Of a stretch of 348 nucleotides of DNA, positions 1-348 are shown in pieces (the first letter of the stretch is position 1; each line of letters opens with the position of its first letter). The DNA comes from Escherichia coli (GTDB lineage: Bacteria; Pseudomonadota; Gammaproteobacteria; Enterobacterales; Enterobacteriaceae). The stretch is taken from assembly GCF_003334255.1 (NCBI RefSeq), contig NZ_QOWU01000259.1. One strand, 5' to 3'. The notes beneath the pieces are model-generated. The model saw only the letters and a program-made list of their open reading frames with translations. It did no database searches and was not told the DNA's origin. Made by a program: the position numbers and the translations under genes.

Positions 1-117
1 CAGGCACTGGCAGTGGGTGTGGGTTACCGCTTCAACGAGCAGACCGCAGCGAAAGCAGGCGTGGCATTCAGTGATGGCGATGCCTCCTGGAACGTTGGTG
101 TGAACTTCGAGTTTTAA
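1..117 (+). CDS. 3' end of an outer-membrane beta-barrel protein gene (5'-partial; start codon lies upstream of the window)
   Basis: Frame +1 is open from base 1 to TAA at 115-117. Translation: [38 protein letters not shown]. Alternating hydrophobic/polar residues, short turns (NEQT, DGDAS) and a terminal Phe with aromatic/hydrophobic residues at -1, -3, -5 match the C-terminal beta-signal of outer-membrane beta-barrels. Internal GVGYRF resembles the C-terminal motif of OmpX/Ail/PagC-family proteins (from memory). Codons are common enterobacterial ones (ctg, gcg, aac, ttc, ggt, cgc). Family assignment is inference; no gene name can be given. Confidence 0.78.
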
Positions 118-141: not shown

Positions 142-175
142 ACGGCAGGCGCAGGACTCTGGTCTGCCGTTTTTC
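142..175 (+). terminator. Rho-independent (intrinsic) terminator of the upstream gene
   Basis: Inverted repeat ACGGCAGGC (142-150) pairs with GTCTGCCGT (162-170): 8 Watson-Crick pairs plus one G.U. An inner helix CAG (152-154)/CTG (159-161) closes a GACT tetraloop, with a 1-nt bulge at G151. The stem base is GC-rich and is followed directly by a T-run (170-174). It begins 25 nt after the TAA stop. There is no A-run on the upstream side, so it looks unidirectional. Confidence 0.65.
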
Positions 176-205: not shown

Positions 206-348
206 ATGAAGGTGATTCTGGCTACCAGGAACCGCTATCTGGAGTATGGTCTGCAGGCGTTACTGAAGGGGCACAGTGTGATACTGGCGAGGGAGTTTTT
301 CCTGCCGGAGAACCGCCGTTATATCCCGGACTTTGACGAATCCTGGCT
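206..348 (+). CDS. 5' end of a protein-coding gene (3'-partial); possibly a LuxR/FixJ-family transcriptional regulator with an atypical receiver-like N-terminus (GadE/DctR/RcsA-like), tentative
   Basis: ATG at 206 with SD 7 nt upstream; frame is open to the window end (47 codons plus a partial codon). Translation: MKVILATRNRYLEYGLQALLKGHSVILAREFFLPENRRYIPDFDESW. The N-terminal pattern (hydrophobic run, T-R-N, then Y-L-x-x-G-L-x-x-L-L-K-G) is similar from memory to GadE (MIFLMTKDSFLLQGFWQLK), DctR/YhiF (MFLIITRDT…ILSKG) and RcsA. In canonical NarL-type receivers this position is the conserved acidic DD pair; here it is T-R. Functional call rests on about 25 residues of recalled similarity and is not verified. 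Confidence 0.68.
   Translation, partial: MKVILATRNRYLEYGLQALLKGHSVILAREFFLPENRRYIPDFDESW

Follow-up and report, generated by a model that had tools for sequence, protein, structure and literature searches.

In the trimeric autotransporters, each protomer contributes four strands to a single 12-stranded outer-membrane barrel (PMC12511318, PMC7247746, PMC3297439). For the membrane anchor of YadA (YadA-M), solid-state NMR has placed a helix at H16–L45 and the four strands at K53–Y63 (β1), S66–R76 (β2), V81–G91 (β3) and V95–E104 (β4) (PMC3495290). Residues that face the lumen of such barrels are reportedly small (PMC3297439), and a glycine in the third-last strand is perfectly conserved across trimeric autotransporters (PMC11912334); larger residues at this position of YadA impair insertion and surface display, slow autotransport and trigger periplasmic stress (PMC11912334, PMC3297439). 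The β-signal of the BAM complex follows the consensus ζxGxx[Ω/Φ]x[Ω/Φ], and for OmpC an internal signal has been described in which BamD recognises Φxxxxx[Ω/Φ]x[Ω/Φ] (PMC10945584). Among the Eib proteins, trimeric EibD fragments and SDS-stable multimers have been reported (PMC7247746, PMC5450701).

Against this background we analysed a 348-base stretch of E. coli DNA (the window), the first 117 bases of which encode, in frame 1, 38 residues followed by a TAA stop codon at 115–117. By exact string match, the window is 100% identical to positions 2368–2715 of AF151674.1 (eibC/orf-156C of phage P-EibC, E. coli ECOR-9) and to positions 2394–2741 of AF151675.1 (eibD/orf-156D of phage P-EibD, E. coli ECOR-9), and the coding frame is therefore real and not a chance open reading frame. 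The gene names are taken from these phage GenBank records, in which both genes are annotated as 'immunoglobulin-binding protein; cell surface protein; similar to YadA and UspAII'; an exact-sequence look-up returned only the generic protein name 'YadA-like'. EibC and EibD (prophages P-EibC and P-EibD; PDB 2xqh, 2xzr) are identical over the gene end, the stem-loop that follows and the start of orf-156, and, judged by its sequence, the window would fit eibC, eibD or near-identical paralogues in other strains equally well. The 38 residues are almost certainly the C-terminal end of EibC/EibD, which are prophage-borne type Vc autotransporter adhesins of the YadA family. The features of this anchor end, in window coordinates, are:

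1–117, plus strand: 3′ end of eibC (AF151674; product of 504 aa)
1–117, plus strand: 3′ end of eibD (AF151675; product of 511 aa)
1–30, plus strand: strand β2, 10 residues, its first residue lying just upstream of the window (AF2 E52–62; aligns with YadA-M β2 S66–R76)
16–33, plus strand: GVGYRF motif at the periplasmic end of β2 (the G at nt 16–18 stands opposite YadA-M G72 in the 2lme alignment)
34–42, plus strand: turn NEQ between β2 and β3 (AF2 non-strand residues 63–66; the T at nt 43–45 begins β3)
43–72, plus strand: strand β3, 10 residues (AF2 E67–76; aligns with YadA-M β3 V81–G91)
73–78, plus strand: loop DG between β3 and β4 (AF2 model)
79–114, plus strand: strand β4 and C-terminus, 12 residues (AF2 E79–88; aligns with YadA-M β4 V95–E104)
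115–117, plus strand: TAA stop codon of eibC/eibD

An earlier note, made from the letters of this DNA, had read VGVGYRF at residues 5–11, followed by a turn NEQT and two amphipathic strands, AAKAGVAFS and WNVGVNFEF. Both the frame-1 translation, which places VGVGYRF at nt 13–33, NEQT at residues 12–15 and the two strands at 16–24 and 30–38, and the alternation of faces agree with that description: all three segments are amphipathic, with alternating faces QLVVYF/AAGGR in the first, TAAVF/AKGAS in the second and AWVVFF/SNGNE in the third. An AlphaFold (AF2) monomer model of the last 90 residues of the full-length relative WP_271290586.1, built on an alignment of 20 anchors, reached a mean pLDDT of 87.9 and comprises a helix (H2–29) and strands E40–49, E52–62, E67–76 and E79–88. 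The strand count that the note had called for is thus exactly four per chain, following a coiled-coil helix, and not eight or ten. Within the window, the modelled strands fall at residues up to 10, 15–24 and 27–36, in agreement with the YadA-M solid-state NMR limits (PMC3495290) mapped through the 2lme alignment, and the 38 residues divide into β2 (1–10), a turn (12–14), β3 (15–24), a loop (25–26) and β4 with the C-terminus (27–38). The length of the β3–β4 loop differs among relatives in the 20-anchor alignment.

Family and fold were examined on WP_271290586.1, a 503-aa E. coli relative with identical last 38 residues. The Pfam anchor family YadA_anchor (PF03895) matched residues 445–503 over the whole model (1–60 of 60, E = 5.1e-16), so that the protein ends exactly where the model ends, and YadA_autotrans was the best NCBIfam match. 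Sequence matches in the PDB were 2xqh (EibD head and stalk, 6.7e-84), 2lme (YadA membrane anchor, 6.4e-18 over residues 429–502) and 1p9h (YadA head, deposited as 'Invasin', 1.4e-11); through these matches the passenger comprises a YadA-like head or β-roll, a neck and a coiled-coil stalk, and YadA_head repeats gave weak Pfam matches. A signal-peptide-like N-terminus of 27 residues was read by eye. On the structural side, the only Foldseek matches in the PDB with E ≤ 0.001 were 2lme (YadA), 3emo, 2gr7 and 2gr8 (Hia) and 9vnj (AtaA), all of them trimeric autotransporter anchors. The anchors of Hia (2gr7, 3emo) and AtaA (9vnj) have the same fold, with TM-scores of 0.68–0.89 normalised to the query, but only 20–24% sequence identity to it. 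The anchor of Yersinia enterocolitica YadA (2lme) is closer, sharing the helix and four strands, 48% identity over the aligned model, a β2 end of the form A-x-G-x-GYR[V/F] that includes the conserved glycine, and an aromatic last residue; the two differ in that β2 ends GSGYRV in YadA and GVGYRF in Eib, in that the C-terminus reads NIEW in YadA and NFEF in Eib, and in a β3–β4 loop that is one residue longer in YadA. In YadA-type anchors it is the usual arrangement, and a known one, for the G-x-GYRF strand to be internal and to have another hairpin behind it.

The motif was further characterised in 20 related anchors, a fairly close sample with 48–71% identity to the query. G-x-GYR[F/V] stands at the end of β2 in all 20: its two glycines, the Y and the R do not vary, and the next residue is F or V in every case, with F conserved at 90% or more. 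Conservation beyond these close relatives, at the scale of the family, is taken from the literature and from the Pfam match. Residue G6 of the window (nt 16–18), which is invariant in the 20 relatives, stands opposite G72 of YadA-M, the conserved glycine of the third-last strand, numbered G389 in YadA, and the A-A-G-G face of β2 fits the small residues expected towards the lumen. In a regular-expression match, the closing octapeptide NVGVNFEF conforms to the β-signal consensus of the BAM complex, as do the C-termini of 17 of the 20 relatives. The core pattern G-x-x-Ω-x-Ω occurs at only two sites in the whole of EibC, one closing β2 and the other, 27 residues on, closing β4; shuffling the 38-mer gave at least two matches in 0.3% of cases.

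What these results leave of the other barrel families can be weighed directly. The earlier note had attached an OmpX/Ail label to the motif and had offered two explanations, its coincidental presence in some other family of barrels and a barrel with an added C-terminal hairpin; the former is correct, the family being that of the YadA-type trimeric autotransporter anchors (PF03895). That the chain is instead an eight-stranded monomeric barrel of the OmpX/Ail/PagC/Lom type, with a hairpin gained after its GVGYRF end, we regard as extremely improbable. The ending that the note gives for Ail/Lom-type barrels, G-x-GYRF, was confirmed in the one example checked, the Lom protein of a related prophage, which ends IVGTGYRF, and BLASTP against this Lom aligned an 11-residue stretch to DAFIVGTGYRF with 7/11 identities. 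The similarity is nevertheless confined to those 11 residues (E = 0.011 in a single pairwise comparison), and in the full-length relative, on which the profile search proposed in the note was run, Ail_Lom (PF06316), OmpW, OMP_b-brl and Autotransporter (PF03797) found no Pfam match even at E ≤ 10. Moreover, the structural matches are to trimeric autotransporter anchors only, and 5′ of the motif the chain has a single further hairpin, then a long helix and the stalk, instead of six additional strands. Ail, Lom, OmpX and PagC thus resemble Eib in having a G-x-GYRF strand end that faces the periplasm (GTGYRF in Lom), but theirs are monomeric barrels of eight strands whose true C-terminus is the motif itself, whereas in Eib it closes the second of only four strands in the chain, 27 residues before the end, in a trimeric barrel; profile-level similarity between the two groups is absent. 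Ail/Lom membership was rejected for want of a Pfam match and on a BLASTP patch of only 11 residues, and OmpW for want of a Pfam match. The hairpin that had looked additional is β3–β4 of a standard four-strand protomer, and an end of the NFEF type, which the note had named as the sign of a well-known family, is normal in this one: the ends of related anchors read N[FY]E[FW], with the Pfam model stopping at the last residue. A β-domain of the classical, monomeric type Va autotransporters (PF03797) can likewise be given almost no credence. Eib does belong to the autotransporters broadly defined, and ~0.8 kb downstream there is a true type Va peptidase of the S6 family (EaaC-like), but beside the missing PF03797 match the membrane domain spans ~50 residues and four strands, as against ~250–300 residues and 12 strands in type Va, and YadA, Hia and AtaA are what it matches best; domain size and profile results together led us to reject this assignment.

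A different question is why the motif should appear twice in a YadA-type anchor. β1–β2 and β3–β4 might be a detectable tandem duplication of one ββ-hairpin, since both hairpins end V-G-V-x-Ω-x-F in the same register and the sole two G-x-x-Ω-x-Ω matches in EibC are spaced by 27 residues. Remmert et al. reportedly proposed, in 2010, an ancestral-hairpin origin of outer-membrane barrels. Nearly all outer-membrane β-barrels have also been described as homologous (PMC3297439). Yet an hhalign comparison of the β1–β2 and β3–β4 profiles, built from 16 non-identical sequences, aligned 7 columns with E = 0.061 and a probability of 0.9%, which is not significant, and the resemblance could equally have arisen because strands ending at the periplasmic interface are under common physical constraints; internal duplication is accordingly a weak possibility, and on balance an unlikely one. 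We infer that the motif common to Eib and OmpX/Ail/Lom reflects a shared strand-end design of outer-membrane barrels and not family membership, because β2, β4 and the last strand of OmpX/Ail/Lom end at the same membrane interface. A G-x-GYRF strand end is not diagnostic of OmpX/Ail; it recurs wherever outer-membrane strands end at the periplasmic interface, and in trimeric autotransporters it marks β2, the bearer of the conserved pore-lining glycine.

The present analysis establishes the sequence identity, the family and fold, the number of strands and how well the motif is conserved; the function of the YadA-type Eib anchor can be modelled on work with YadA, Hia and Eib, from which Sec export, trimer assembly, recognition and insertion by BAM, and the role of the glycine are drawn. 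Eib chains would be exported by Sec. Each protomer ends in a coiled-coil helix and then four antiparallel strands, and three protomers would combine to form a single outer-membrane barrel of 12 strands that encloses the three helices. The window supplies β2 (ending GVGYRF), β3 and β4 (ending NVGVNFEF) of such a protomer. β2 and β4 are both predicted to run towards the periplasm, which would be why both end in G-x-x-aromatic-x-aromatic, and only β4, at the real C-terminus, would carry the full β-signal recognised by the BAM complex, with insertion presumably depending on BAM and using this C-terminal signal. The small residues on the alternate faces (A, A, G and G in β2; S, N and G in β4) would line the pore, and the first glycine of GVGYRF is the counterpart of the glycine in YadA at which larger side chains slow autotransport and impair insertion. 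The three passenger chains would then be exported through the trimeric barrel, and the displayed head and coiled-coil stalk would mediate the non-immunological binding of IgG and IgA and the chain-like aggregation described for Eib proteins (PMC7247746, PMC5450701, PMC12511318).

We also considered whether the β2 end, LAVGVGYRF, functions as an internal BAM signal comparable to that of OmpC, beyond its structural part as a strand end, a proposal that is speculative and probably wrong. L-AVGVG-Y-R-F fits the internal-signal descriptor Φxxxxx[Ω/Φ]x[Ω/Φ], but the fit carries little weight because this loose pattern matches eight places in EibC. If the proposal were true, each Eib/YadA protomer would bear two BAM signals and each trimer six, and such paired signals could help to coordinate the assembly of three chains into one barrel.

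The same junction was found in 39 of 5,426 complete E. coli genomes (at megablast sensitivity), where all copies are chromosomal, number 1–6 per genome and lie at the cargo end of a prophage, 3′ of the tail-fibre genes; upstream of eib the prophage carries capsid, tail-fibre, gpJ and Lom genes. In other genomes, the identical 38-residue anchor end is joined to passengers of 438, 503, 504 and 511 aa, which suggests that passenger segments are exchanged as modules on a conserved 3′ cassette. The anchor end, the terminator and the start of orf-156 occur together at L001:6606–8117, L002:6801–8117, L003:970–2484 and L004:975–2510, with differing passenger lengths.

Two of these prophages can be described further. 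In strain DETEC-S792 the eib prophage, which includes a capsid protein of the N4-gp56 family, ends adjoining rcsD (L001:13523–16195). In strain S1-CAM-02-A the eib prophage region is interrupted by two IS21-family elements and one IS1, and also contains an Ail/Lom-family barrel ending IVGTGYRF (L002:682–1281); this barrel and eib, both bearing the motif, lie ~5.5 kb apart in the one prophage. The type Va protein ~0.8 kb downstream of eib is an EaaC-like serine-protease autotransporter of the S6 family, 1,335 aa in length, and the prophage cargo region thus includes a type Vc and then a type Va autotransporter in tandem, with orf-156 and orf-60 between them. Its gene was located at:

L001:8950–12957: EaaC-like S6-family autotransporter
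L002:8950–12957: EaaC-like S6-family autotransporter
L003:3317–7324: EaaC-like S6-family autotransporter

The rest of the window, beyond the stop codon of eib, holds two further features:

142–174, plus strand: terminator-like stem-loop with a 9-bp G+C-rich stem and an inner 3-bp stem, followed by a T run
206–348, plus strand: orf-156 (ORF-156C/D), first 47 codons, with AGGAAGG upstream at 192–198 (annotated in AF151674/AF151675)

The stem-loop begins 25 nt past the eib stop codon and coincides with the GenBank stem_loop at AF151674 2509–2537 (window 142–170). Its predicted RNA fold has an energy of −30.7 kcal/mol (z = −2.74), and a terminator scan matches it as well; Rfam found no structured RNA in the window at E ≤ 1, and a scan found no sigma-70-like promoter between eib or the stem-loop and orf-156.

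orf-156, which continues to L001:8206–8676 and L003:2573–3043, is a neighbour of the anchor and not a part of it, and lies directly 3′ of eibA, eibC, eibD and relatives. Its product, for which no sequence relative was found in Pfam, NCBIfam or the PDB, falls in PHROG 6585 (function unknown), and all named sources of its homologues in a word-index protein search are E. coli. An AF2 model of the product (pLDDT 86.2) resembles response regulators of the NarL/FixJ type (LiaR, StyR, FixJ, VraR, RcsB and EvgA), with Foldseek E-values of 4.5e-4 to 1e-2 and probabilities mostly >0.9. The aspartate D52, where the third strand (β3) ends, is invariant, but the acidic pair that normally follows the first strand (β1) gives way to T-R-N; the C-terminus carries a LuxR-like helix-turn-helix. 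orf-156 may encode an atypical regulator linked to the eib/eaa cargo genes.
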